Below, piece after piece: positions 16,774-30,852 of a stretch of 31,275 bases of DNA. Within the stretch, counting starts at the first letter, position 1. The number at the start of each line of letters is the position of its first letter. The stretch covers positions 1 to 31,275 of the IMG/VR virus record IMGVR_UViG_3300030060_002742; one strand, given 5' to 3'. A program made the position numbers and the translations under genes. The stretch comes from a virus. A model generated the notes under the pieces. That model searched no databases. It worked only from the letters and a program-made list of their open reading frames with translations, and was not told the origin of the DNA.

Positions 16774-17226
16774 ATGACTTTTAAATTATCAGCCAACAGC
16801 ATGAGCAAAATGACAGGCATCAAGAATGAATTACATACGATAGTTTGTGAAGCCATACGCCTAACTAAAGTAGACTTTGGTGTTATCTGTGGTCTTAGAA
16901 CTCAAGAAGAACAGGATGCCCTTTTGGCAAAAGGTGCAACACAGACAAAAACGAGTAAGCACATGACAGGAGATGCCGTAGACCTCATGGCGTACGTTGG
17001 TTCGAGAGCAAGTTGGGAACTAAATTTGTATGATGATATTGCAGATGCCATGAAAAAAGCAGCTAAAAATAATAATGTAAAGATACGTTGGGGTGCAGCT
17101 TGGCACATAGATAACTTTGCAGAATATGAAGGTACTGCCGAGGATGCTATGAACGATTACATTGACCTAAGAAGAAGCCAAGGGCGTAGACCGTTCATAG
17201 ATGGTCCTCATTTTGAATTAAATTAA
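16774..17226 (+). CDS. Endolysin, peptidase M15 (VanY/L-Ala-D-Glu peptidase-like, 150 aa)
   Basis: Motifs GLRTQEEQDAL...KGA..T..SKHMTGDAVDL...IRWGAAW...DGPHFEL match the zinc-binding H/D/H architecture of M15 phage peptidases. Confidence 0.85.
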   Translation: MTFKLSANSMSKMTGIKNELHTIVCEAIRLTKVDFGVICGLRTQEEQDALLAKGATQTKTSKHMTGDAVDLMAYVGSRASWELNLYDDIADAMKKAAKNNNVKIRWGAAWHIDNFAEYEGTAEDAMNDYIDLRRSQGRRPFIDGPHFELN

Positions 17227-17451
17227 ATCTCTTATTATCTTGATAGCTCTTGGGTGAGCCTTCTTCGTCTCAATAAATCCTCGTTGAACGAGTTGATCTA
17301 TGAGTGAAGCCATTGAAGCCCTGCTTTTGTGACCTGTGTGTTGCATAATTTCCTCATAGGATGGCATATATTTATGTTTACGATAGTATTTTTTCATAAA
17401 CTTCAAGACTTGAACTTGACGAGGTGTAAGTGGGAAATCTTCCATAATCAT
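17218..17451 (-). CDS. LexA N-terminal DNA-binding-domain-only protein (77 aa; no S24 peptidase domain)
   Basis: LTPRQVQVLKFMKKYYRKHKYMPSYEEIMQHTGHKSRASMASLIDQLVQRGFIETKKAHPRAIKII aligns along its length with E. coli LexA [66 protein letters not shown] (recalled sequence). The ATG overlaps the RecT stop (ATGA). Confidence 0.75.
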   Translation of the reverse strand: MIMEDFPLTPRQVQVLKFMKKYYRKHKYMPSYEEIMQHTGHKSRASMASLIDQLVQRGFIETKKAHPRAIKIIRDLI

Positions 17452-18011: not shown

Positions 18012-18935
18012 CTAAATCTCCCTGATTGAAAATCTTTTGTGAGAACGTGCAGGTTTGGCCGGCATCATTTGCTCTGGTTTGGCTGAAACATTGACTGTTT
18101 TGTGTTCAATCAAATAGTTTTTAAAAGTTGCCCGTTCTGAATTAAGCTTTTGCATCACCCCCTGGATTTGAGCATCAATATTTTCCAGGCTATCCTTCCA
18201 CTTGGTCGCTTCTGCTTTGGCAGTCATTCGGCTGTCCAACATCACCTCCATCTGTCGTGCAAACGCATGGTCATCCAAGTTGATGACTGGAGGTTGCTCA
18301 TTGTCCTCCTCGTAGGGAATATCTTTGTCAACCTTGTACCAAAACTCTCGAACTTTACTCATAATTATGGCAATCATCTTCTCTGACCTTTTGTACGGAT
18401 AGAGCTTTACATTTAGATCATTACCCATTTTTGAGATGATCCCGAACCTAGCACCTGTACACGCCATTTGGGTTTGCAATTGCCATTCATATCTCATGAT
18501 GGGGGGAACCGTAGACTTACTTTGAGCATCAGTTTTAAATTCATTAATAATCAAGGATCTCATAGGAAAGTCATTTCCCATTGGATTTGGAATAATTAAG
18601 TCCTTATCGACTTTGAACTTACTGTCACAAGAACAACCAAGACGTTCCTCAACAATGCGATCTGCTCCATTGACTTCAATAATTTCTAGATTGGTCCCTT
18701 CCATCATTGCCTCACGAATTAAATTGTAGCTTTGAAGTTTCACAAAAGGCTCAAGCCAAAGACCTCTTTTCATTGCTTTTGTAGGCTCTTGTAGCAAGGG
18801 AACCACCCCTTGCTTGATTGCCACCCATTGTTTTCTAAGCTCTTCTTTGGTTTGACCTGAAAAACTATTTTCACCTTCAACAATCGTTGCGACTGTAGTT
18901 GCTCCAACTTCCTTTCCATCAACTGTGTGTTTCAT
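18012..18935 (-). CDS. YqaJ/lambda-Exo-like PD-(D/E)XK exonuclease (307 aa from the ATG at 18935)
   Basis: Motifs MKRGLWLEPFV, CSCDSKF, INEFKT (ExK) and YEWQLQTQMACTG match YqaJ-like recombination exonucleases. The ATG at 18935 forms a TGATG overlap with the upstream stop. The GTG at 18947 is an alternative start. Confidence 0.7.
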   Translation of the reverse strand: MKHTVDGKEVGATTVATIVEGENSFSGQTKEELRKQWVAIKQGVVPLLQEPTKAMKRGLWLEPFVKLQSYNLIREAMMEGTNLEIIEVNGADRIVEERLGCSCDSKFKVDKDLIIPNPMGNDFPMRSLIINEFKTDAQSKSTVPPIMRYEWQLQTQMACTGARFGIISKMGNDLNVKLYPYKRSEKMIAIIMSKVREFWYKVDKDIPYEEDNEQPPVINLDDHAFARQMEVMLDSRMTAKAEATKWKDSLENIDAQIQGVMQKLNSERATFKNYLIEHKTVNVSAKPEQMMPAKPARSHKRFSIREI

Positions 18936-19165
18936 CAGAACCCCCACACTTCAGGCCAAGAACATGTCTGAGACATGGCACAACCAACAGCTAAAAAAAT
19001 GTAAATTGAAACAAACAAACAAACTGCTCCGAAAATTTCAGTCAAAGTCTCTTTAAGTTTGTTAAGTTTGTTGAGTGTAGCAAGTCTGTTAGGGTCAAGA
19101 AAATCTGACACGTTATATATTATGCGAATAATTTCACTGTAGTAGGTTATAAGTATTTGTTTCAT
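18935..19165 (-). CDS. Small membrane protein (76 aa)
   Basis: AGGAG RBS upstream (gagcagaggagattgctgaaATG). C-terminal TM segment IFGAVCLFVSIYIFLAVGCAM. Function unknown. Confidence 0.5.
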   Translation of the reverse strand: MKQILITYYSEIIRIIYNVSDFLDPNRLATLNKLNKLKETLTEIFGAVCLFVSIYIFLAVGCAMSQTCSWPEVWGF

Positions 19166-19272
19166 TTCAGCAATCTCCTCTGCTCAATTTTGTCCACAAT
19201 CTAAAAGGGTAGTTCCATTTTGTCTATTGACCAGGATGCAACCCTTTTAATCTGAACACCTGTTTTTTTTGC

Positions 19273-20223: not shown

Positions 20224-20993
20224 TATTTTTCTCCATAAATTCGTTTGACTAAGTTTGAAACATTCGACGGACCCCACTTGCCACCACGACGGGTCTTGTA
20301 CATGTCAGTGTGATTGTTAAGATAGGATGCCATTTCACGTAAACTGTAGCCTTGTTTGACAAGATCGACGATGACAGGTCGCATCCTTTCAGCAAAAGCA
20401 TCTGCTTCCTCCTGAATAGCTTCATGCCCCTTCTCTCTTGCGTCTTCCATGTTTGAGTGAATGCCTAGCTGGGTGATCTTCTTCCCTGACTTGGTGGTGT
20501 AGTGACCTTTGTTCTCAATGACTTCATTGATGCGTCCCAACGCTGATTTTGTGTTTAAAGATATTTTTTCTCGCATGTCCTGGGCCATGGCGACTTTGAT
20601 GGCAAGAACAAGCTTGTTTTGCTTTGGATCGGCAGACAACATAGGATCGTCACAGACAATCAAGTTTACCTTCCCAGTCTCAACATAGCGCTCAAAGAAT
20701 TGAAGCCCATGCCAAGCAGTCCTGAACAGTCTGGAGATCGAGCTGACAATGACTGTCGCTTTCTTTTTCTTGGCTGCGTCCATTGCTTCCTTCAAAACAG
20801 GTCTTTTGTCAGGATGAACTTTACCACTGATGTTTTCTTCAAACCATTCAACCGTATGATCGCCACCGTTGAGGAAGTCACGAATGTCTTTTTTATCTCT
20901 CTCTGTTTCCTGTTTATTGGTCGATACACGGACATAAGCTATGTAGTTTCCTTTGTGTGGCTGACCAGATGTGCTTTGGTTAGCTGGTGACAT
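20223..20993 (-). CDS. Small serine recombinase (resolvase/invertase catalytic domain plus C-terminal DNA-binding region, 256 aa)
   Basis: YIAYVRVSTNKQ contains the catalytic-Ser motif. Also present are VIVSSISRLFR and a C-terminus ADAFAERMRPVIVDLVKQGYSLREMASYLN...RRGGKWGPSNVSNLVKR, typical of short recombinase-family proteins. GGAGAA RBS lies 6 nt upstream. Confidence 0.85.
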   Translation of the reverse strand: MSPANQSTSGQPHKGNYIAYVRVSTNKQETERDKKDIRDFLNGGDHTVEWFEENISGKVHPDKRPVLKEAMDAAKKKKATVIVSSISRLFRTAWHGLQFFERYVETGKVNLIVCDDPMLSADPKQNKLVLAIKVAMAQDMREKISLNTKSALGRINEVIENKGHYTTKSGKKITQLGIHSNMEDAREKGHEAIQEEADAFAERMRPVIVDLVKQGYSLREMASYLNNHTDMYKTRRGGKWGPSNVSNLVKRIYGEK

Positions 20994-21038
20994 TAAATGT
21001 TCTCCTTTGTATCTATAACAGTTCGTTTAATGTTCGTC

Positions 21039-21068
21039 TTTACTGTACATATACCAGGATGGTACATT
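21039..21068 (+). promoter_or_regulatory. Candidate rightward promoter (TTTACT-N18-TACATT) for the RHH operon
   Basis: Hexamers at 21039-21044 and 21063-21068, about 45 nt upstream of the RHH ATG. Sigma-70-like by eye only. Confidence 0.35.
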
Positions 21069-21074
21069 GTGCAA
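21046..21074 (-). promoter_or_regulatory. Candidate leftward promoter (TTGCAC-N17-TATGTA) for the recombinase operon
   Basis: On the minus strand the -35 is at 21074-21069 and the -10 at 21051-21046. It interdigitates with the rightward promoter, so each -10 abuts the other promoter's -35. Confidence 0.35.
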
Positions 21075-21111
21075 GACCTAGATGTTACTTTTTTTTGAAC
21101 GAAGGTGAATT

Positions 21112-21261
21112 ATGAAGCAGGTACACATTAGAATAAACGACGAAGTCTATGAAAAACTTAAAGAATTAGCCGAGAAGGATCGTAGATCAATGGCTAGTTT
21201 GGCCGAATACATTTTATCAAAAGGCTTGCACGATTTTAAAAAAGAGCTTGAAAAAGCATGA
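21112..21261 (+). CDS. Ribbon-helix-helix (CopG/Arc/MetJ-type) DNA-binding protein, 49 aa; candidate Cro-like regulator
   Basis: MKQVHIRINDEVYEKLKELAEKDRRSMASLAEYILSKGL is a textbook RHH beta-strand plus two helices. GAAGGTG RBS. Missed by the ORF track because it is under 60 aa. Confidence 0.75.
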   Translation: MKQVHIRINDEVYEKLKELAEKDRRSMASLAEYILSKGLHDFKKELEKA

Positions 21262-21482
21262 CCCCGGAGTTCAGTCAACCAACACTTGCATTTTTGCTTT
21301 TGGAGTTCACTTCCCTTGCCGATTGTCAGGTTGTCGTAAAGCATCTGGTTGGTTTCATCCATCACAATTTGTTCGTGAATTGTCACAATCACGATGACAG
21401 CTATGCATTTTGGTTTGAACACTGGATGCAACACAATCATTTTCGAGAAGTTCCACCTTCAAGACCGAAGGTGCTTGAATGA
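21258..21482 (+). CDS. His/aromatic-rich 74-aa hypothetical protein
   Basis: ATGA overlap with the RHH stop and ATGA overlap with the next gene. Translational coupling and the downstream RBS hairpin argue that it is translated. No homolog recognised. Confidence 0.4.
   Translation: MTPEFSQPTLAFLLLEFTSLADCQVVVKHLVGFIHHNLFVNCHNHDDSYAFWFEHWMQHNHFREVPPSRPKVLE
21454..21473 (+). promoter_or_regulatory. Hairpin CACCTTC-aagacc-GAAGGTG sequestering the RBS of the DUF1064 gene
   Basis: Perfect 7-bp stem. The right arm is the AAGGTG Shine-Dalgarno, 5 nt upstream of the ATG at 21479. Confidence 0.55.
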
Positions 21483-21817
21483 GGTTTAACAAGTTCAATG
21501 CCCACAAAACCGAGGTCGATGGCATTTTATTTGACAGTAAGAAAGAAGCCACAAGATATAGTGAATTAAAGTATTTGGAGAAAGCAGGTCAGATACACAA
21601 CCTGGAGCTTCAACCCAAGTTTGAATGTATAGTGAAGGAGAAGAAGATATGTACCTACAGAGCAGATTTCAGATATTTCGACAAGTTCCAGAGGGGCGTG
21701 TTGGGTCAGGAAGGAACTATGGTAGTCGAGGACGTAAAGGGCTTCAAAACACCAACCTACAGGTTGAAAAAGAAGCTGGTCGAGGCATTGTTCCAGGTGA
21801 AGATAACCGAATTATGA
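21479..21817 (+). CDS. DUF1064-family protein (PD-(D/E)XK nuclease-like, 112 aa)
   Basis: NKFNAHKTEVDGILFDSKKEATRYSEL..LEKAGQI..LELQPKF......YRADF.Y......VEDVKGFKTPTYRLKKKL matches the DUF1064 pattern known from phage replication modules. Confidence 0.8.
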   Translation: MRFNKFNAHKTEVDGILFDSKKEATRYSELKYLEKAGQIHNLELQPKFECIVKEKKICTYRADFRYFDKFQRGVLGQEGTMVVEDVKGFKTPTYRLKKKLVEALFQVKITEL

Positions 21818-22110
21818 TTACAACAATTGACTTAGCCTTGGTTTTTCAAGAAATAACAAAAATTTCATTTACGGTTATGTATGAGGATTGTCGAAAGGAC
21901 AACGAGTTCATTCACCTGCGTTTCATGTGGACAGGCGTTTGTCGTTTCTTCAAGCGATCCTATCCTCAAATCGCTAAAACAATTAGAAAGGATCATTCGA
22001 CTTGCGTGTTTTATTACAAGCGTCATCTAATGATGATGGACAAATACGACTGGTACTCAGAAAGCTACCTTCTTTTGTTGGATGACACACTGGATCGTTT
22101 TGGGGTTTAA
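21814..22110 (+). CDS. DnaA domain-IV-like helix-turn-helix protein (98 aa, stand-alone)
   Basis: ATGA overlap with the DUF1064 stop. EFIHLRFMWTGVCRFFKRSYPQIAKTIRKDHSTCVFYYKRHLMMMD parallels E. coli DnaA ...[44 protein letters not shown] (recalled sequence), including the DH[ST]T motif. Confidence 0.65.
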   Translation: MITTIDLALVFQEITKISFTVMYEDCRKDNEFIHLRFMWTGVCRFFKRSYPQIAKTIRKDHSTCVFYYKRHLMMMDKYDWYSESYLLLLDDTLDRFGV

Positions 22111-23088
22111 ATGTTGGATATGCCACCAAATAAAACCTCCAAGCAAGTCTTAAGGGAAATAAACAAGGCTCGACAAGACATCCTTCGGCCACCCAAAGAA
22201 CACAACACCTGTGAAACCGGCAAGGAACAGGATCAAGCATTCTCCGCATTCTTCAAAGCACCGAGCAGAGCCTTACAGGACAAACGACTTGCAACAAGAC
22301 CAAGGACTTTTATTATTCTCTGTGCCTTATGTCAGTTTATTGGACCAACAGGATACTGTTATCCCAAGCAAGCACGGATCGCACGACAGCTAGGCATGAC
22401 ACAACAAGGGGTGAGTAAACATATTAGATTGCTGGTTGATTATGGGTATGTCGATAAGGTTCGGAATGAGTATAAGTTTCGTAAAAACGGACATACATCA
22501 GCCACCTGGCGCATACTTTTTGATCCATCAATTGACCAAGAACAAGGGTACAAAAACACCCTCGAACACGATGAACGATTTCAAGAGCAAGAAGCCGAGG
22601 AAACCATGAAAAAAGTAAATGAAAACAATAAGAAGAGTAAGTTATCCACAGAGTTATCCACAGGTAGGCAAAAACAGGCAAAAAAGAAGGAAAAAGAGGG
22701 TACAAAAACAACCCAATTAGGTTGTATGACCCCACAACCCAATGAGGTTGTACAAAAACTGACCAATAGAACTAATATATTTAATATTATAGGAAAAGAT
22801 ATTTGTAAGCTTTATGCTCATTTGTTGGACGACATCGTTGGAGGTCGAGGTGAGTGGCGGTGGGACGAGAGGCAAGAGCAAATAGCTCAAGGGTTCTTAG
22901 ACAAGGGAATGACAGTCGATAGCTTCAAGGCATCAGCAAAGAGAACTCTGTACAGTTGCAAGAAGGAGAGCAGACGACCACCCTACTCGCTTGCATTCTT
23001 TGAACAGGCCATGCCACAAACAAAGAAACCCACCTTGTCAGCTAGTGATGTCATCAAAAGAGTAACCAACAAGAGTAAAATAAAATGA
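22111..23088 (+). CDS. Replication initiator-like protein with N-terminal winged-helix domain (325 aa)
   Basis: ILCALCQFIGPTGYCYPKQARIARQLGMTQQGVSKHIRLLVDYGYVDKV is the HTH pattern of phage O/replication-initiator proteins. A charged low-complexity linker carries the DnaA boxes. It sits in the replication module. Confidence 0.6.
   Translation: MLDMPPNKTSKQVLREINKARQDILRPPKEHNTCETGKEQDQAFSAFFKAPSRALQDKRLATRPRTFIILCALCQFIGPTGYCYPKQARIARQLGMTQQGVSKHIRLLVDYGYVDKVRNEYKFRKNGHTSATWRILFDPSIDQEQGYKNTLEHDERFQEQEAEETMKKVNENNKKSKLSTELSTGRQKQAKKKEKEGTKTTQLGCMTPQPNEVVQKLTNRTNIFNIIGKDICKLYAHLLDDIVGGRGEWRWDERQEQIAQGFLDKGMTVDSFKASAKRTLYSCKKESRRPPYSLAFFEQAMPQTKKPTLSASDVIKRVTNKSKIK
22640..22663 (+). promoter_or_regulatory. 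Two perfect consensus DnaA boxes (TTATCCACA at 22642-22650 and 22654-22662) within a 12-bp tandem duplication AGTTATCCACAG x2
   Basis: Read directly: gtaAGTTATCCACAGAGTTATCCACAGgt. It encodes the duplicated LST-E-LST in the initiator linker. Confidence 0.7.
22664..22710 (+). repeat. Phased A-tracts (AGGCAAAAAC AGGCAAAAAA GAAGGAAAAA GAGGGTACAAAAAC)
   Basis: A5-6 runs begin at 22670, 22680, 22691 and 22704, roughly one helical turn apart and immediately 3' of the DnaA boxes. This suggests intrinsic bending or an unwinding-prone region. Confidence 0.5.
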
Positions 23089-23105
23089 CTGTTCATAACT
23101 TAGAG

Positions 23106-23126
23106 GTTCGTTTACATTGTGTACAT
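23106..23126 (+). promoter_or_regulatory. Composite motif GTTCGTTTACATTGTGTACAT shared with the switch region
   Basis: It contains GTTCGTTTA (also at 21021-21029), TACATTGTG (also at 21063-21071) and TGTACAT (also at 21044-21050). It lies just after the initiator stop, before the first good ATG (23151) of the next ORF. Confidence 0.45.
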
Positions 23127-23150
23127 CTGCTAAATTACGTACAAAAAATA

Positions 23151-23369
23151 ATGCAATCTTTTTACACGATGTCCACGACCCCACCAAGAAAAAACGACCT
23201 TACGCCCCCCCCCGTTGCTAAGTATAGTAGGGGTATCCCACAAAACTTTTTCCAAGATTTCGTCTGTTGCCTTTGCGGTAAGGACGCTACTTTATCTCAT
23301 GGTCAGACTGATAGTTTGTATTGCGTAGAACATCATCCTGATTGGCAGAAAATCAAAGAAAGGAAGTAA
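23151..23369 (+). CDS. Small Cys/His protein (72 aa from the ATG at 23151), possible zinc ribbon
   Basis: CCLCGKDATLSHGQTDSLYCVEHH fits a CxC...CxxHH pattern. The start was moved downstream of the shared operator-like motif. It contains a C9 homopolymer (23205-23213). Confidence 0.45.
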   Translation: MQSFYTMSTTPPRKNDLTPPPVAKYSRGIPQNFFQDFVCCLCGKDATLSHGQTDSLYCVEHHPDWQKIKERK

Positions 23370-23370
23370 C

Positions 23371-23652
23371 ATGGATAAATACAAGAGATTTAAATTTCTT
23401 ACTTGTGAGCAACTAATAAAGTTCTACGAAAATGATGACAGTATAAATCAGGAAATAGATATGTCTTTAGACCCACCTTACTCATTTATGCTTCCAGAAC
23501 ATCTTAGTGAATTGTGGAAAAAAGAAGGTCTTAAACCATCAAAATTTACTTTAGATTTATGGAAAACTGACGCTGAAAGAATAAACGATTTAAGAAAAAT
23601 AAGAAAAAGAGATGGAATTACAAAGTACATACCAAAATGTTGTTTTAATTAA
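23371..23652 (+). CDS. Hypothetical protein (93 aa)
   Basis: The ATG is 1 nt after the previous stop, preceded by AAGGAAG. AT-rich ORFan. Confidence 0.5.
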   Translation: MDKYKRFKFLTCEQLIKFYENDDSINQEIDMSLDPPYSFMLPEHLSELWKKEGLKPSKFTLDLWKTDAERINDLRKIRKRDGITKYIPKCCFN

Positions 23653-23706
23653 AAACGCTGTAAACGATGTAAACGCAACTATCAAACGTATCAAACGTAT
23701 CAAATA
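23653..23706. repeat. 9-bp-phased AAACG array: TGTAAACG x2 (+AAACG) then TATCAAACG x2 + TATCAAATA
   Basis: AAACG motifs start at 23653, 23662, 23671, 23684 and 23693, with a decayed copy at 23702. The array lies in a 177-bp non-coding gap. Confidence 0.8.
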
Positions 23707-23756
23707 AAGGTATTTTTTAACAAATGTCGCATAAAAAACAACAAAAAGGAGCTAAA

Positions 23757-23840
23757 ATGCAAGAAATCGTAGATACGGACAAAGAACGCAAGGAATTTGA
23801 AGGACTGAAAAAAATGATGGAGAAAATGAATGGAAGATAA
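23757..23840 (+). CDS. 27-aa mini-ORF MQEIVDTDKERKEFEGLKKMMEKMNGR
   Basis: Near-ideal AAGGAG RBS with a 5-nt spacer. It overlaps the next ORF start by 11 nt. Very short, so uncertain. Confidence 0.3.
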   Translation: MQEIVDTDKERKEFEGLKKMMEKMNGR

Positions 23841-24288
23841 AGATTTTGAATATTATGAACAATATGATGCTGATTGTAATCCTATACATTTAATCTGGAA
23901 TTGTCGAATTACTGACAGAGAAAGACTAAAACATCCTTTTGTTGGAATGTGCGGATGGAAGTTTAAGGATACAGATGATCTTACAAAAAAGGTACATCCA
24001 CATCAGCATTTCATCATTCATGCAGTTGCTAATGATATGGTTATTATTCGTTTGTTTAGCTGGTTGGATGGTACTCCTACACACATGGAAGCATATCCAC
24101 TAGAGGACATAAAGAAATGGCATCTTTTTACTAATAACAAGGACATGAACGAAAGTTATTACCATGACTTTCCTACAGGATCTATGACTGGTCTAGACAA
24201 AAATAAGAAAAAACAAACTAAAAAAACTAACTACACTTTGGCAGAAATATCCAAGATGTTTGAAAAAAAAATAGATGCAAAACTTTAA
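23830..24288 (+). CDS. Hypothetical protein (152 aa)
   Basis: GGAG lies 7 nt upstream. AT-rich ORFan with no motif recognised. Confidence 0.55.
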   Translation: MEDKDFEYYEQYDADCNPIHLIWNCRITDRERLKHPFVGMCGWKFKDTDDLTKKVHPHQHFIIHAVANDMVIIRLFSWLDGTPTHMEAYPLEDIKKWHLFTNNKDMNESYYHDFPTGSMTGLDKNKKKQTKKTNYTLAEISKMFEKKIDAKL

Positions 24289-24499
24289 ACAAATAATTTT
24301 TAGCAAAGAAGAATATGAGATGCTCTGTGAAATAATTGCAGTAAATTACAAGCATCCTCAGTACATTGATGGCAGCATTGTTTGCAATGGAGATCAATTA
24401 GAAACATGGAAGAATATAAACAAGAAAATTAGGGGTGAAGAATTTGCACCCCCCCTGGTAAAGATAGCAACAATAAATGGAGAAAAAGTAAATGGCTAG
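24275..24499 (+). CDS. Hypothetical protein (74 aa)
   Basis: Overlaps both neighbouring genes, by 14 nt and 8 nt. Contains a C7 tract at 24449-24455. Confidence 0.45.
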   Translation: MQNFKQIIFSKEEYEMLCEIIAVNYKHPQYIDGSIVCNGDQLETWKNINKKIRGEEFAPPLVKIATINGEKVNG

Positions 24500-24905
24500 T
24501 TTAAACAAAGTAACCTTGATCGGTAATGTAGGACGAGATGTAGAGATTAAGGTTTTTGACAATGGGGGTAAGATTGCCAAGTTTCCATTAGCGACGACGG
24601 AAAGTTACAAGAACAAATCGGGAGAGAAAGTAGAGAACACCACTTGGCATAACATTGTTATTCGTTCTGAGGGATTGTGTAGAATTGCTGAGATGTATGT
24701 TGGGAAAGGTTCTCAGATTTGTGTTGAAGGAAAGATTTCTGTGAGAGAATATTCAACTAAAGATGGCAACAAGGCAAAGCAGACGGAAATTGTTGTTGAT
24801 AGCTTTGGGGGTCAACTTATTCTTCTTTCTAGGAAAGATCCTAAACCTCAACAGTCTTTACAGAACTTAGGAAATTTTGATCAACAAATAACTACGGGGG
24901 TTTAA
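24492..24905 (+). CDS. ssb: Single-stranded DNA-binding protein (137 aa)
   Basis: LNKVTLIGNVGRDVEIK......AKFPLATTESYK.KSGEKVE.TTWHNIV......AEMYVGKGSQICVEGKI..REY is the canonical OB-fold SSB pattern. Confidence 0.9.
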   Translation: MASLNKVTLIGNVGRDVEIKVFDNGGKIAKFPLATTESYKNKSGEKVENTTWHNIVIRSEGLCRIAEMYVGKGSQICVEGKISVREYSTKDGNKAKQTEIVVDSFGGQLILLSRKDPKPQQSLQNLGNFDQQITTGV

Positions 24906-25303
24906 TGAAACGGGTTGGAGGTATAAAGGGCATTCGTCAGATTACCCGAAGGATTAAGGGTTCTAATGTTATTATGAATAACCGGGATCGGTTAGCTCAA
25001 GAACTTGTTGCTTTGGGAACTTCTGACATTACGGACATTATGACTTGGGATGATGAGGGAAATGTGGAGATAAAAGCCTCTAAGGACATAAAGCCTGAAG
25101 CATTGAGGTCTATTCGTAAGATAAGGGTATTGCCTGGTCAGGGCATTGAGGTTGAGTTGATTGACAAGGTTAGGGTGTTGCAGACACTTGCGAAAAGCGC
25201 AGGGTTATTGGAAAGCGAGAAACATGCGGATAGGCCAGCCGTGGTAGAGGTTCAGATGTTAGGCCCCGGTGATAATACTTTTAAGGAAAAGAAAAATGAC
25301 TAA
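24905..25303 (+). CDS. Terminase small subunit-like protein (132 aa)
   Basis: TAATG-coupled to ssb and directly upstream of the large terminase. The C-terminal ...IRKIRVLPGQGIEVELIDKVRVLQTLAKSAGLLE resembles the C-terminal half of Terminase_2-type small subunits. Confidence 0.55.
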   Translation: MKRVGGIKGIRQITRRIKGSNVIMNNRDRLAQELVALGTSDITDIMTWDDEGNVEIKASKDIKPEALRSIRKIRVLPGQGIEVELIDKVRVLQTLAKSAGLLESEKHADRPAVVEVQMLGPGDNTFKEKKND

Positions 25304-25460
25304 GAAATCAATTGTGGATCAATTTAGACTAAAACCGATTGCCCTAGAAAACAGAGCTAAAACTATGGGAAAAAGAAAGTATAGTTTAAATAAAATCAAG
25401 AAAGATTGTTTACGTTTTGAAAGATCGGTAGGTGTAAGAAATGACCCCCTTAAAACTTGA
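25296..25460 (+). CDS. Possible 54-aa basic ORF between the terminase genes
   Basis: The ATG overlaps the TerS stop region, and the ORF overlaps the TerL start by 20 nt. No motif recognised. It may be spurious. Confidence 0.25.
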   Translation: MTKKSIVDQFRLKPIALENRAKTMGKRKYSLNKIKKDCLRFERSVGVRNDPLKT

Positions 25461-26952
25461 TTTTAGATCCTCTCCCGTTATCTGGAAGTTTCTTAATAAT
25501 AATTCTTTTGTTCGGGCTTTAATGGGTCCAGTAGGATCGGGAAAGTCTTATGCCTGTTGCGCTGAATTGTTTAAACGAGCGGTAAGTCAAAAACCTTCTA
25601 AAAGAGATGGAATACGCTATTCACGGTTTGCGGTTGTAAGAAACTCTTATCCCATGCTGAAAACAACAACCTTGAAGACCTGGCTAGAATTATTTCCTGA
25701 AGATACCTGGGGGCCAGTTCGCTATGCACCACCAATTACTCATCATTTAAAATTACCTTCTAGAGAAGGAGCTGCCGGAGTAAACATGGAAGTAATATTT
25801 TTAGCTTTGGATCAGCCCAAAGACGTACGAAAGTTATTATCCTTGGAACTTACTGGTGCTTGGGTCAATGAAGCCAGAGAGCTTCCCAAGGCAGTAATTG
25901 ATGGACTTACGCACCGTGTTGGCCGTTATCCTTCCAAAGCCGATGGTGGACCAACTTGGCGAGGAATAATCTTGGATACAAACCCTATGGACAGCGATCA
26001 TTGGTATTTTAATCTAGCTGAAAAAGAAACCCCCAAAGGAGAATTTGCTTGGAAATTCTTTAGACAAAATGGTGGGGTTATGGAAATAGAAAGTAAGAAC
26101 GTACCGGCTGATAGTCCAGAAGCAAAAGGATTTATTTTTTCGGCTGGTAAATGGTGGGAAACAAATAGCAAGGCAGAGAATTTAGGCAATCTTCCTTCTG
26201 GATATTATGAGCAGCTTTTAGGGGGTAAGAAATTAGATTGGATTAGATGTTATGCTGAGGGTAAGTATGCATTTGTTCAGGAAGGTAAACCTGTCTGGTC
26301 GGAATATGATGATGATACGATGGTTGACGACCTTGTTGTTGAAGAACATATTCCAATACAAATTGGTTTGGACTTTGGATTAACCCCTGCTGCTGTTTTT
26401 GCTCAGAAAATGCCTAATGGACGGTGGCACATATTGCATGAACTTGTGACTTTTGACATGGGTCTAGAACGCTTTTGTCATATTTTAAAATCAGAAATAA
26501 ATAATAGATTTCCAAACATTAGCGTACAAATCTGGGGCGATCCTGCTGGTATGCAACGGGATCAAATCTTTGAAACAACGGCCTTTGACCATTTAAAAAC
26601 CCATAATTTATTGGCTAGACCTACGGCTACAAACGATTTCAAGGTACGAAGAGAAGCTTTAGCTGCTCCAATGGGAAGATTAATTGAGGGGAAGCCTGGG
26701 TTATTGGTTGATCGTAATTGTGTTCGTCTTAGAAAAGCTCTTTCTGGTGGCTATCATTTCAAAAGAATAGCGATTGGAGCCGGTCAAGAACGGTTTAAAG
26801 ATACGCCAAACAAAAATGAGCATTCACATATTGGCGACGCTGGGGGATATTGTTTGTTGGGAGGAGGAGAACATCGAAGAATAACCAGAGGAACGTCGCC
26901 ACAATTTAGACAACCTGTCCAAGCCAATATTGATTTTGATGTTTTTGCCTAG
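25441..26952 (+). CDS. terL: Terminase large subunit (503 aa)
   Basis: Walker A LMGPVGSGKSY, a Walker B-like LTGAWVNEA, and a C-terminal nuclease-region pattern (GLDFG..PAA.., WGDPAG, HIGDA). Confidence 0.9.
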   Translation: MTPLKLDFRSSPVIWKFLNNNSFVRALMGPVGSGKSYACCAELFKRAVSQKPSKRDGIRYSRFAVVRNSYPMLKTTTLKTWLELFPEDTWGPVRYAPPITHHLKLPSREGAAGVNMEVIFLALDQPKDVRKLLSLELTGAWVNEARELPKAVIDGLTHRVGRYPSKADGGPTWRGIILDTNPMDSDHWYFNLAEKETPKGEFAWKFFRQNGGVMEIESKNVPADSPEAKGFIFSAGKWWETNSKAENLGNLPSGYYEQLLGGKKLDWIRCYAEGKYAFVQEGKPVWSEYDDDTMVDDLVVEEHIPIQIGLDFGLTPAAVFAQKMPNGRWHILHELVTFDMGLERFCHILKSEINNRFPNISVQIWGDPAGMQRDQIFETTAFDHLKTHNLLARPTATNDFKVRREALAAPMGRLIEGKPGLLVDRNCVRLRKALSGGYHFKRIAIGAGQERFKDTPNKNEHSHIGDAGGYCLLGGGEHRRITRGTSPQFRQPVQANIDFDVFA

Positions 26953-29812: not shown

Positions 29813-30065
29813 CCAACCAGGATGGGAAGGACTTGACGCTGTTTTTAGTGATGAAGTGCAACAATCGACACAACAGGACAAAGAGTTTTTAGATGCTTTT
29901 TCGACTAAATCCGGGCAGAAAGTTCTTCATGATTTGGAAAAAAGATTTTTACAGCAACCTTCGTGGGTTCCTGGGAGTAATGAACATTATGGCTACTACC
30001 GTGAGGGGCAAAATTCCGTAGTGAACTATATGAAAAATAAAATGAGGAGAGCATTAAATGGCTGA
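29781..30065 (+). CDS. Small head-morphogenesis-region protein (94 aa)
   Basis: Sits between portal and scaffold. G.KVLHDL...YYREGQNSVVNYM is reminiscent, from memory, of small Bbp19-like proteins found at this position in some podoviruses. The start is uncertain because it overlaps the portal gene by 32 nt. Confidence 0.45.
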   Translation: MKQQQKKPSINQPGWEGLDAVFSDEVQQSTQQDKEFLDAFSTKSGQKVLHDLEKRFLQQPSWVPGSNEHYGYYREGQNSVVNYMKNKMRRALNG

Positions 30066-30852
30066 AGAAGAAAAGTTAGAAGAAGAGAAAGTGGAGGAAA
30101 CAGCAACAGAAGAAAAACCACAGGGGTTGATGGCTGAAGCAAAAAAAGAAGAAGAAAAAATAGAAGATGAAGAAATAAATCACGACGTTAAGGAAGCAGA
30201 ATTAAAAAAACCTGATTATCTCCCTGAGGAATACTGGGATGAGGAGAACGGAACTAAACTTGAGGCGTTGATGGACGCATTTACAAAACAGGAAAAAAGC
30301 TATCAGGAACTTCGCAAAAAGATGTCTCGGGGAGATCATAAGCCTCCTGAAAAGTATACATGGGAAAACCTTGGAGAAGTTGATCCAGATGATGCTTTAC
30401 TTGGAACCTATACGGAATGGGCCAAGGAGAATGGCATTACTCAAGATGCTTTTGATAAATTGGGTCAGGCATTTACAGAATATCAGAATAATTTTGTTAA
30501 AGATGCTGAGATGGACCTTGAAAAAGAACGTCAACTATTGGGAAAGAATGCAAATGAAATCATTAATAGCAATGTGGAATGGGGTCGTGGGTTGGTTGCC
30601 AAGGGTGTTTTCACGGAAGCAGACTACGACCAACTCGAAATCCTTGGGGGATCAGCCAAAGGCCAAAGGGTTATCCAGAAAATCAGGGGCATCACAGGGG
30701 AAAAGGAAATCCCCATTGCGTCAATCGAGGGCGAAGCACCAGACCAAGAAGAACTTATGATGATGGTTCAGGATGCCAGATACCAAAATGATCCGACCTA
30801 CCGTAAGAAAGTAGAGAAGATGTATCAGGAAGCCTATTCCAATTCATATTAG
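30058..30852 (+). CDS. Scaffolding protein (264 aa)
   Basis: Highly acidic Glu/Lys-rich N-terminus with helical character. Located between the portal and capsid genes. Confidence 0.65.
   Translation: MAEEEKLEEEKVEETATEEKPQGLMAEAKKEEEKIEDEEINHDVKEAELKKPDYLPEEYWDEENGTKLEALMDAFTKQEKSYQELRKKMSRGDHKPPEKYTWENLGEVDPDDALLGTYTEWAKENGITQDAFDKLGQAFTEYQNNFVKDAEMDLEKERQLLGKNANEIINSNVEWGRGLVAKGVFTEADYDQLEILGGSAKGQRVIQKIRGITGEKEIPIASIEGEAPDQEELMMMVQDARYQNDPTYRKKVEKMYQEAYSNSY

Follow-up and report, generated by a model that had tools for sequence, protein, structure and literature searches.

A stand-alone, strongly diverged DnaA domain IV homologue encoded beside the replication initiator of a marine phage

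The virus record IMGVR_UViG_3300030060_002742 of IMG/VR (positions 1 to 31,275; hereafter the window, that is, the whole stretch of 31,275 nucleotides that was analysed) carries a short open reading frame (ORF) packed tightly between two larger genes of the same strand. The 98-codon ORF (21814–22110, plus strand) begins with an ATG at 21814 that overlaps the TGA stop codon (21815–21817) of the upstream gene, forming an ATGA at 21814–21817, and its own TAA (22108–22110) directly precedes the ATG of the downstream gene at 22111. The upstream gene (21479–21817, plus strand) encodes a DUF1064 protein (Pfam E = 9.3e-23) and matches PHROG 190, annotated as Holliday junction resolvase (E = 4.8e-34). 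The downstream gene (22111–23088, plus strand) encodes a replication initiator with an N-terminal winged-helix domain (HTH_36, E = 5e-11) and many PHROG matches annotated as replication initiation or O-like. An earlier reading of these letters (the original prediction) had described a 98-residue ORF coupled to DUF1064 through the ATGA and abutting the initiator gene, and our coordinates and the DUF1064 match agree with it. It had also proposed that the product (MITTIDLALVFQEITKISF...DHSTCVFYYKRH...DRFGV) resembles only the C-terminal DNA-binding domain, domain IV, of the bacterial initiator DnaA.

Profile, profile–profile and fold comparisons establish the product of 21814–22110 as a stand-alone, strongly diverged homologue of DnaA domain IV. 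A search of Pfam Bac_DnaA_C (PF08299), which had been suggested as a check, succeeded for the family and fell short for the single sequence: the 98-residue protein alone scored 18.4 bits (E = 0.0022), below the gathering score of 31.5, while all six members of the first family alignment matched (best E = 9.5e-9). A profile built from these six sequences retrieved from the PDB the DnaA structures of Mycobacterium tuberculosis (3pvp, 4.4e-5), Escherichia coli (1j1v, 6e-5, residues 10–90 aligned to 9–90) and Bacillus subtilis (8btg, 1e-3), and hhalign against E. coli domain IV gave 94% probability (E = 9e-8). Single-sequence phmmer against the PDB returned noise only, namely thioredoxin-like matches at E > 0.2. 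The AlphaFold2 model, computed from a 22-sequence alignment, has six helices (pLDDT 92, pTM 0.85). With this predicted structure as the query, the best eight Foldseek matches in the PDB were all DnaA domain IV, and all later ones had TM < 0.45. Superposition on the DNA-binding domain of M. tuberculosis DnaA (3pvp) gave TM 0.84/0.87 and a root-mean-square deviation (rmsd) of 1.8 Å over 95 columns; for E. coli domain IV (1j1v), TM was 0.77/0.80. Family profile, hhalign and the AlphaFold2 model with its Foldseek matches therefore all agree with the resemblance that had been predicted, and the superposition that had been proposed as a further check bears it out.

Compared with cellular DnaA domain IV (PF08299; 1J1V of E. 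coli, 3PVP/3PVV of M. tuberculosis), the phage protein shares the fold (TM 0.77–0.87, rmsd 1.8–1.9 Å, 90–95 columns) and the succession of helices, in which a basic loop leads into a helix-turn-helix. The phage protein differs in not being joined to the AAA+ domain III or to domains I–II, in having Phe, Tyr or Trp at the position of E. coli H439, and in a basic loop with one invariant Arg. As the original prediction had it, Pfam scans found no AAA+ (Bac_DnaA) or any other Pfam domain in the product, whether taken as 98 residues or as the 153-residue form described below; a weak secondary match to HTH_38 was seen in five of the six family members. Because AAA+ domain III and domain I are absent, both from the 98 residues and from the longer form with its disordered leader, the protein is not a DnaA-type initiator. 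Identity to cellular domain IV is only 15–19%, which marks the protein, as judged from its sequence, as an old diverged branch of DnaA domain IV and not a recent capture of a host gene.

In an alignment to E. coli DnaA, P51 corresponds to P423, D60 to D433, H61 to H434, S62 to T435, T63 to T436 and F66 to H439, and R27/K28 fall within one position of R398/R399. Fujikawa et al. in 2003 reportedly found R399, P423, D433, H434, T435 and H439 to be the residues of E. coli DnaA that contact bases or the groove. By this alignment, five of these six positions appear to be kept, and the basic loop appears reduced. D60, H61, T63 and R27 are invariant across 22 family sequences. The position of H439, which is Tyr in M. 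tuberculosis DnaA, holds Phe, Tyr or Trp throughout the family; because of this Tyr, an aromatic residue there is compatible with binding to DnaA boxes. The contact residues of DnaA are partly restated in work on GafA (PMC9638019), to which we return below.

The family to which the window protein belongs is known from marine metagenomes, the source of all its relatives. Four close relatives share 60–100% identity with it; more distant ones were found by exhaustive search, and a profile search led to 23 clusters, most of which have a precomputed PF08299 match. These ~23 protein clusters form three subfamilies (A, which includes the window, B and C), reach down to ~30% identity and keep 14 invariant residues. 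Neither the window protein nor 22 family members matched any PHROG; the window protein was likewise without a match in NCBIfam and, by tblastn, in 50,697 phage records. With the domain of subfamily B as the query, the only match in the phage records was gp62 of Sulfitobacter phage phiGT1, a protein annotated as 'DnaA C-terminal domain IV' and likewise stand-alone. A scan of IMG/VR with the initiator as the query, aimed at relatives without the DnaA-IV gene, brought up essentially no contigs beyond those already known.

The idea of a phage protein consisting of domain IV proved less novel than the original prediction had assumed, as many phage proteins already carry such an annotation. Foldseek against predicted viral structures (BFVD) matched the model to dozens of phage proteins of 92–190 residues named 'Chromosomal replication initiator, DnaA C-terminal' (probability 1.0, TM 0.7–0.8); annotated examples include I6RTB7 of Nonlabens phage P12024L, a protein of Flavobacterium phage vB_FspS_tooticki6-1 and many from 'uncultured Caudovirales'. 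Like the window protein, these are small, consist essentially of domain IV and often lie among replication or early genes. Unlike them, the window family forms a branch of its own that has diverged further and that neither PHROGs nor tblastn against isolates detects. It also has particular features: a fixed partnership with DUF1064, whose gene it overprints with its leader, and an O-like initiator with DnaA boxes in the origin. The stand-alone phage DnaA domain IV is thus a known kind by annotation, and the window family is a diverged member of it. Such isolated domain IV proteins are widespread in phage genomes, and our literature search for a characterised phage protein of this kind found no functional study, GafA being the only precedent.

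An unrelated phage (L032, the 40.9-kb contig Ga0208645_1000516) encodes at 2441–2890 a 149-residue protein with a canonical Bac_DnaA_C domain (Pfam 1.1e-13), directly after a family A DNA polymerase (DNA polymerase A) and before winged-helix and helicase-like genes. Its C-terminal extension, from reading the sequence, is a possible coiled coil. Stand-alone domain IV genes recur across different phage replication modules.

In the window family the surroundings of the gene are fixed: the order DUF1064, DnaA-IV gene, initiator and single-stranded DNA-binding protein (SSB) is kept in all loci compared, across the three subfamilies. The gene itself probably starts not at the junction but at ATG 21649, inside DUF1064, and yields a product of 153 residues (21649–22110, plus strand) in which a leader of ~55 residues, predicted to be disordered, precedes the DnaA-IV domain. 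The 98-residue, ATGA-coupled gene that had been proposed is there as an ORF, overlap included, and is probably incomplete. A Shine–Dalgarno-like AAGGAG (21635–21640, plus strand) lies 8 nt upstream of ATG 21649, within the DUF1064 coding sequence, so that the stretch from 21649 to 21817 (plus strand) would be dual coding, carrying the 3' third of DUF1064 (its last 56 codons) and, in the -1 frame, the DnaA-IV leader. Public gene calls give a protein of 153–162 residues. In the structure prediction, leader residues 1–53 have pLDDT < 50 and are predicted to be disordered, and their sequence is poorly conserved.

Conservation across the subfamilies supports this start. Where the DUF1064 gene ends, subfamily B offers no ATG, GTG or TTG, either at the stop codon or just past it, and L010 lacks one anywhere upstream of the domain core; even so, protein-level conservation extends to the first helix of the domain. 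An ATG at a conserved position opens the -1 frame in 18 of 18 distinct DUF1064 genes and likewise in the third subfamily, C (L034). This ATG lies at -166 in subfamily A (21649 in the window) and at -148 in subfamily B, and a GGAG 8 nt before it is kept in subfamilies A, B and C, even though the DUF1064 residues encoded there differ (KEKK, KGEK and NGRK). When synonymous codons of DUF1064 were resampled with phage codon usage, the probability that the -1 frame stays open was 5e-5 for the window, 6.5e-4 for L001, 8.5e-4 for L004 and 5e-4 for L034; the 5' part of the DUF1064 gene has 5–8 stops in the same frame. At DUF1064 third positions before AA, AG or GA codons, where a T would create a stop in the -1 frame, T was found at 0 of 302 positions in the overlap and at 108 of 411 upstream, while T occupies the third position of 17% of all codons in the overlap. 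Length by itself is a poorer guide: 4 of the 874 open -1-frame runs in individual genes of this genome reach at least 55 codons by chance, and for this reason the dual-coding claim rests on conservation in three subfamilies, on the Shine–Dalgarno-like motif with its ATG and on the avoidance of T, and not on run length. The genes 22111–23088 and 30058–30852 also hold unusually long open stretches in the -1 frame (67 and 73 codons).

Three other explanations of the upstream frame were rejected. That the N-terminal extension is an artefact, being simply the -1 frame of DUF1064, is contradicted by the conserved ATG, the Shine–Dalgarno-like motif, the open frame and the T avoidance. Joining the DnaA-IV domain to DUF1064 by programmed -1 frameshifting would need a slippery heptamer, and none is conserved: the window alone has G AAA AAG, and subfamily B has CTC AAG AAG AAA. 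Frameshifting would also leave unexplained why the frame opens from a conserved Shine–Dalgarno-like motif and ATG. CTG or TTA starts at the junction of subfamily B were discarded because a single nucleotide separates the GGAGG from the CTG and because L004 carries TTA. In subfamily A a 98-residue isoform from the junction ATG 21814 is possible. The overprinted start offers a clean example of a conserved dual-coding region, and calling the long or the short ORF decides whether DUF1064 is annotated at all; in L001–L005, where public gene calls take the long ORF, DUF1064 is not called.

Downstream, the initiator gene contains the candidate origin. Two exact copies of the DnaA box TTATCCACA lie at 22642–22650 and 22654–22662 (plus strand), as a direct repeat with a 12-bp period, where the original prediction had placed two consensus boxes; TTATGGACA denotes a mutated form of this box. 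They encode KLSTELST in the initiator linker and are the only exact copies in the 31-kb window. Boxes with at most one mismatch number 15 in the window against 9.9 ± 3.2 expected, with no significant enrichment. One of these, TTGTCCACA at 19190–19198 (plus strand), lies in a short gap just upstream of the minus-strand ORF 18935–19165 and, given the lack of enrichment, is probably a chance occurrence.

Repeat analysis also revealed two 19-nt palindromic iterons, ACAACCCAAT(T/G)AGGTTGTA, at 22708–22752 (starts 22708 and 22734, plus strand), which are presumed initiator binding sites. Iterons of the form ACAAC-N5-9-GTTGT occur in 2–4 copies at the equivalent position in every lineage. Just after them, an AT-rich stretch (22770–22793, plus strand), read from the sequence, is a candidate unwinding element. 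The whole layout at 22545–22800 (plus strand) comprises a repeat, AGGGTACAAAAACACCC (22545 and 22697), the boxes, an A-rich spacer, the iterons and the AT-rich stretch. From this arrangement, the origin appears to be lambda-O-like, inside the initiator gene, with plasmid-like DnaA boxes. As in lambda O and ori-lambda, the origin lies inside the initiator gene, with dyad iterons in the linker followed by an AT-rich stretch. The iteron origins of plasmids pSC101, F, RK2 and R6K and of P1 oriR also carry host DnaA boxes and rely on full-length host DnaA. They resemble the window in setting iterons for their own initiator next to consensus DnaA boxes and an AT-rich stretch; unlike the window, none of these plasmids and phages is known to encode a domain-IV-only protein beside the initiator.

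The original prediction had suggested a survey of how the gene and the boxes co-occur in relatives, and the association turned out to be partial. Both boxes are present in the window clade (L016, L017, L019, L020 and L021), 45 bp from the iterons. A second clade, whose initiator is only 33% identical (L001–3, L009, L010, L012 and L024), has one exact box at the equivalent place, directly against the first iteron. Retention of the exact 9-mer in an otherwise unalignable linker argues for selection on the box at the DNA level, and conservation in two diverged lineages marks the boxes as functional. Other lineages lack it: L008/L018, with an initiator 69% identical to that of the window, have lost an 81-nt segment bearing the boxes, and L004/L005/L025 have four iterons and no box; the origin regions of both groups contain neither an exact nor a one-mismatch box. 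The box-less clades nevertheless keep the DnaA-IV gene intact, with the same DH(S/T)T recognition helix. Because two box-less lineages keep the gene, the phage boxes are not an obligatory target of the protein. Iterons (2–4) and boxes (0–2) vary among lineages as if traded off against each other. For the roles floated in the original prediction, occupation of the phage origin boxes or dominant-negative competition with host DnaA, both of which would be possible functions, the comparison thus points in two directions.

What the protein does is suggested by its setting and its fold. The gene constantly sits with replication genes, even in the unrelated phage L032, which points to a role in replication control. 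Domain IV is the sole part of DnaA that reads the 9-bp box. In isolation it binds DnaA boxes specifically (PMC5835720), the structures 1j1v and 3pvp being isolated domain IV on box DNA; because the phage protein has nothing else folded, a monomeric occupant of boxes is to be expected. We infer that single molecules of it would bind sites of the DnaA-box type, with contacts made by the retained basic loop and the P...DH(S/T)T recognition helix, and that without AAA+ and domain I it would neither oligomerise, unwind DNA nor recruit helicase. By occupying boxes it would exclude full-length host DnaA and could modulate both DnaA-dependent initiation and DnaA-regulated promoters. Because the gene is kept in box-less lineages, its constant targets more likely lie in the host, at the boxes of oriC and the DnaA regulon, than in the phage, whose two boxes may be a plasmid-style landing pad for host DnaA. 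We rank this competition at host boxes first, since lineages lacking origin boxes still carry the gene and since the boxes, where present, are identical to the cellular consensus; we regard it as a serious possibility that falls somewhat short of probable.

Several points weigh against such competition. Its main internal tension is that a competitor would get in the way of host DnaA at the two phage boxes as well, and the gene is encoded immediately upstream of the phage initiator. The basic loop keeps a single invariant Arg, compared with KRRSR in E. coli, and the box specificity of the protein may have drifted, given its 15–19% identity to cellular domains and its sub-threshold Pfam score. 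Near-consensus boxes are not enriched elsewhere in the phage. By terminase, even the closest isolate, an OM43 phage, is at 65%. Furthermore, a DnaA-like DNA-binding domain serves as a transcription-factor domain in GafA (PMC9638019).

The protein could instead be a positive accessory factor of the phage origin, binding the tandem boxes and bending or organising the origin together with the O-like initiator, in place of host DnaA; a possible role for its disordered leader would be contact with the initiator or with the helicase of the host. The gene abuts that of the initiator (TAA, then ATG), with the order kept in three subfamilies, and the exact boxes, which lie near the iterons in the window clade and adjoin them in the L001 clade, are conserved where the surrounding linker is not. 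This fits less well with the intact genes of L008/L018 and L004/L005/L025, which have no origin box, with the 560–850 bp of other genes that come before the initiator gene in several relatives, and with the exact match of the boxes to the host consensus, which is what recruitment of host DnaA would predict; we consider an accessory role distinctly less likely than competition at host boxes. Slightly less likely again is a transcription regulator that reuses the domain IV fold with its own specificity, other than for DnaA boxes, and acts on early or late phage genes or on host genes. GafA offers the precedent: its N-terminal DnaA-like domain activates promoters of RcGTA, and in Hyphomicrobiales gafA has a small, separate DnaA-like gene ahead of it (PMC9638019). 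The strong divergence of the sequence, the reduced basic loop and the weak HTH_38 matches would suit such a regulator. Yet the protein retains the D-H-(S/T)-T and Pro residues with which DnaA typically contacts bases, the gene lies in replication modules and not at late-operon promoters, no repeated candidate operator was seen nearby other than the DnaA boxes and iterons, and no sigma-like or DUF6456 partner domain was found.

GafA is itself instructive on this last point. It too has a DnaA domain IV-like domain outside DnaA, in a phage-derived element and sometimes as a separate gene upstream of its partner, and it is a transcription activator whose sigma-like C-terminal part binds the omega subunit of RNA polymerase (PMC9638019). 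In the window, by contrast, neither the protein nor its downstream neighbour has a sigma-like or DUF6456 part, the neighbour being the HTH_36 initiator. A chance ORF, or the decaying remnant of a captured dnaA 3' end, would account for the sub-threshold score of the single sequence and for the absence of matches in PHROGs and in isolated-phage genomes. It would not account for the 14 residues held invariant over ~23 clusters and three subfamilies at identities down to ~30%, the confident fold prediction, the conserved synteny or an upstream reading frame that is actively kept open. Conservation refutes a non-functional ORF for practical purposes, and we regard it as extremely improbable.

The window encodes a second bare DNA-binding domain. 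As the original prediction had noted, a gene at 17218–17451 (minus strand) encodes only the N-terminal DNA-binding domain of LexA, in 77 residues (PF01726, E = 2.4e-13, above threshold). The protein lacks the S24 peptidase part, and its gene lies directly downstream of a RecT-like gene; from its domain content, it could be an uncleavable SOS-box binder. Together with the DnaA-IV gene, it fits a pattern in which the genome encodes DNA-binding domains of host regulators in isolation. A bolder proposal, which we think rather unlikely, is that the phage deploys both bare domains, DnaA domain IV and the LexA-type protein (17218–17451, minus strand), as a pair of decoys. The DnaA decoy would occupy oriC and DnaA-regulon boxes, stop host initiation and free the replisome for the phage origin, and its expression would be hard-wired to the replication module through the start overprinted on DUF1064. 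If such proteins are DnaA-box decoys, they would represent a simple and general phage route to shut off or redirect host initiation, as well as a ready-made tool for blocking DnaA boxes. The locus lends itself to testing: the protein is small, its likely site is known and stands in the phage origin as exact tandem copies, natural relatives that have origin boxes can be compared with others that lack them, and the genome also carries the LexA-type gene.

The rest of the window is that of a podovirus-like marine phage. A serine recombinase, RecT and a YqaJ-like gene lie on the minus strand; the plus strand carries a ribbon-helix-helix gene, the DnaA-IV module, SSB, the small and large terminase and structural genes, and the genome also encodes portal, tail, holin and endolysin. 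By large terminase, the nearest isolate is the Methylophilales (OM43) phage MEP301 (65%), which has no counterpart of the DUF1064/DnaA-IV/initiator module. A scan of GTDB genomes for prophage copies gave as its sole match one 2-kb contig of a Saccharibacteria metagenome-assembled genome, uninformative on the host. Promoter and terminator signals in 20900–25500 were at or near background.

Between the DnaA-IV and initiator genes, relatives differ in content. The 560–850-bp inserts occur in L016, L017, L009 and L010. Subfamily B has a conserved ORF of 68–71 residues (MQTKMYMLMVFMNFTDPDACQEM...) at this place (6458–6673 in L001, 4228–4434 in L004), of which the window has no counterpart. In L020 (VTLG01006652.1, 1–2751), the DUF1064/DnaA-IV pair is found twice, around a cassette of two genes encoding 280 and 303 residues; the 303-residue gene resembles, on reading the sequence, the DNA_methylase (PF00145) gene of L001. 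The junction seems to be an insertion hotspot for extra genes, unless the L020 contig is a chimera of variants.

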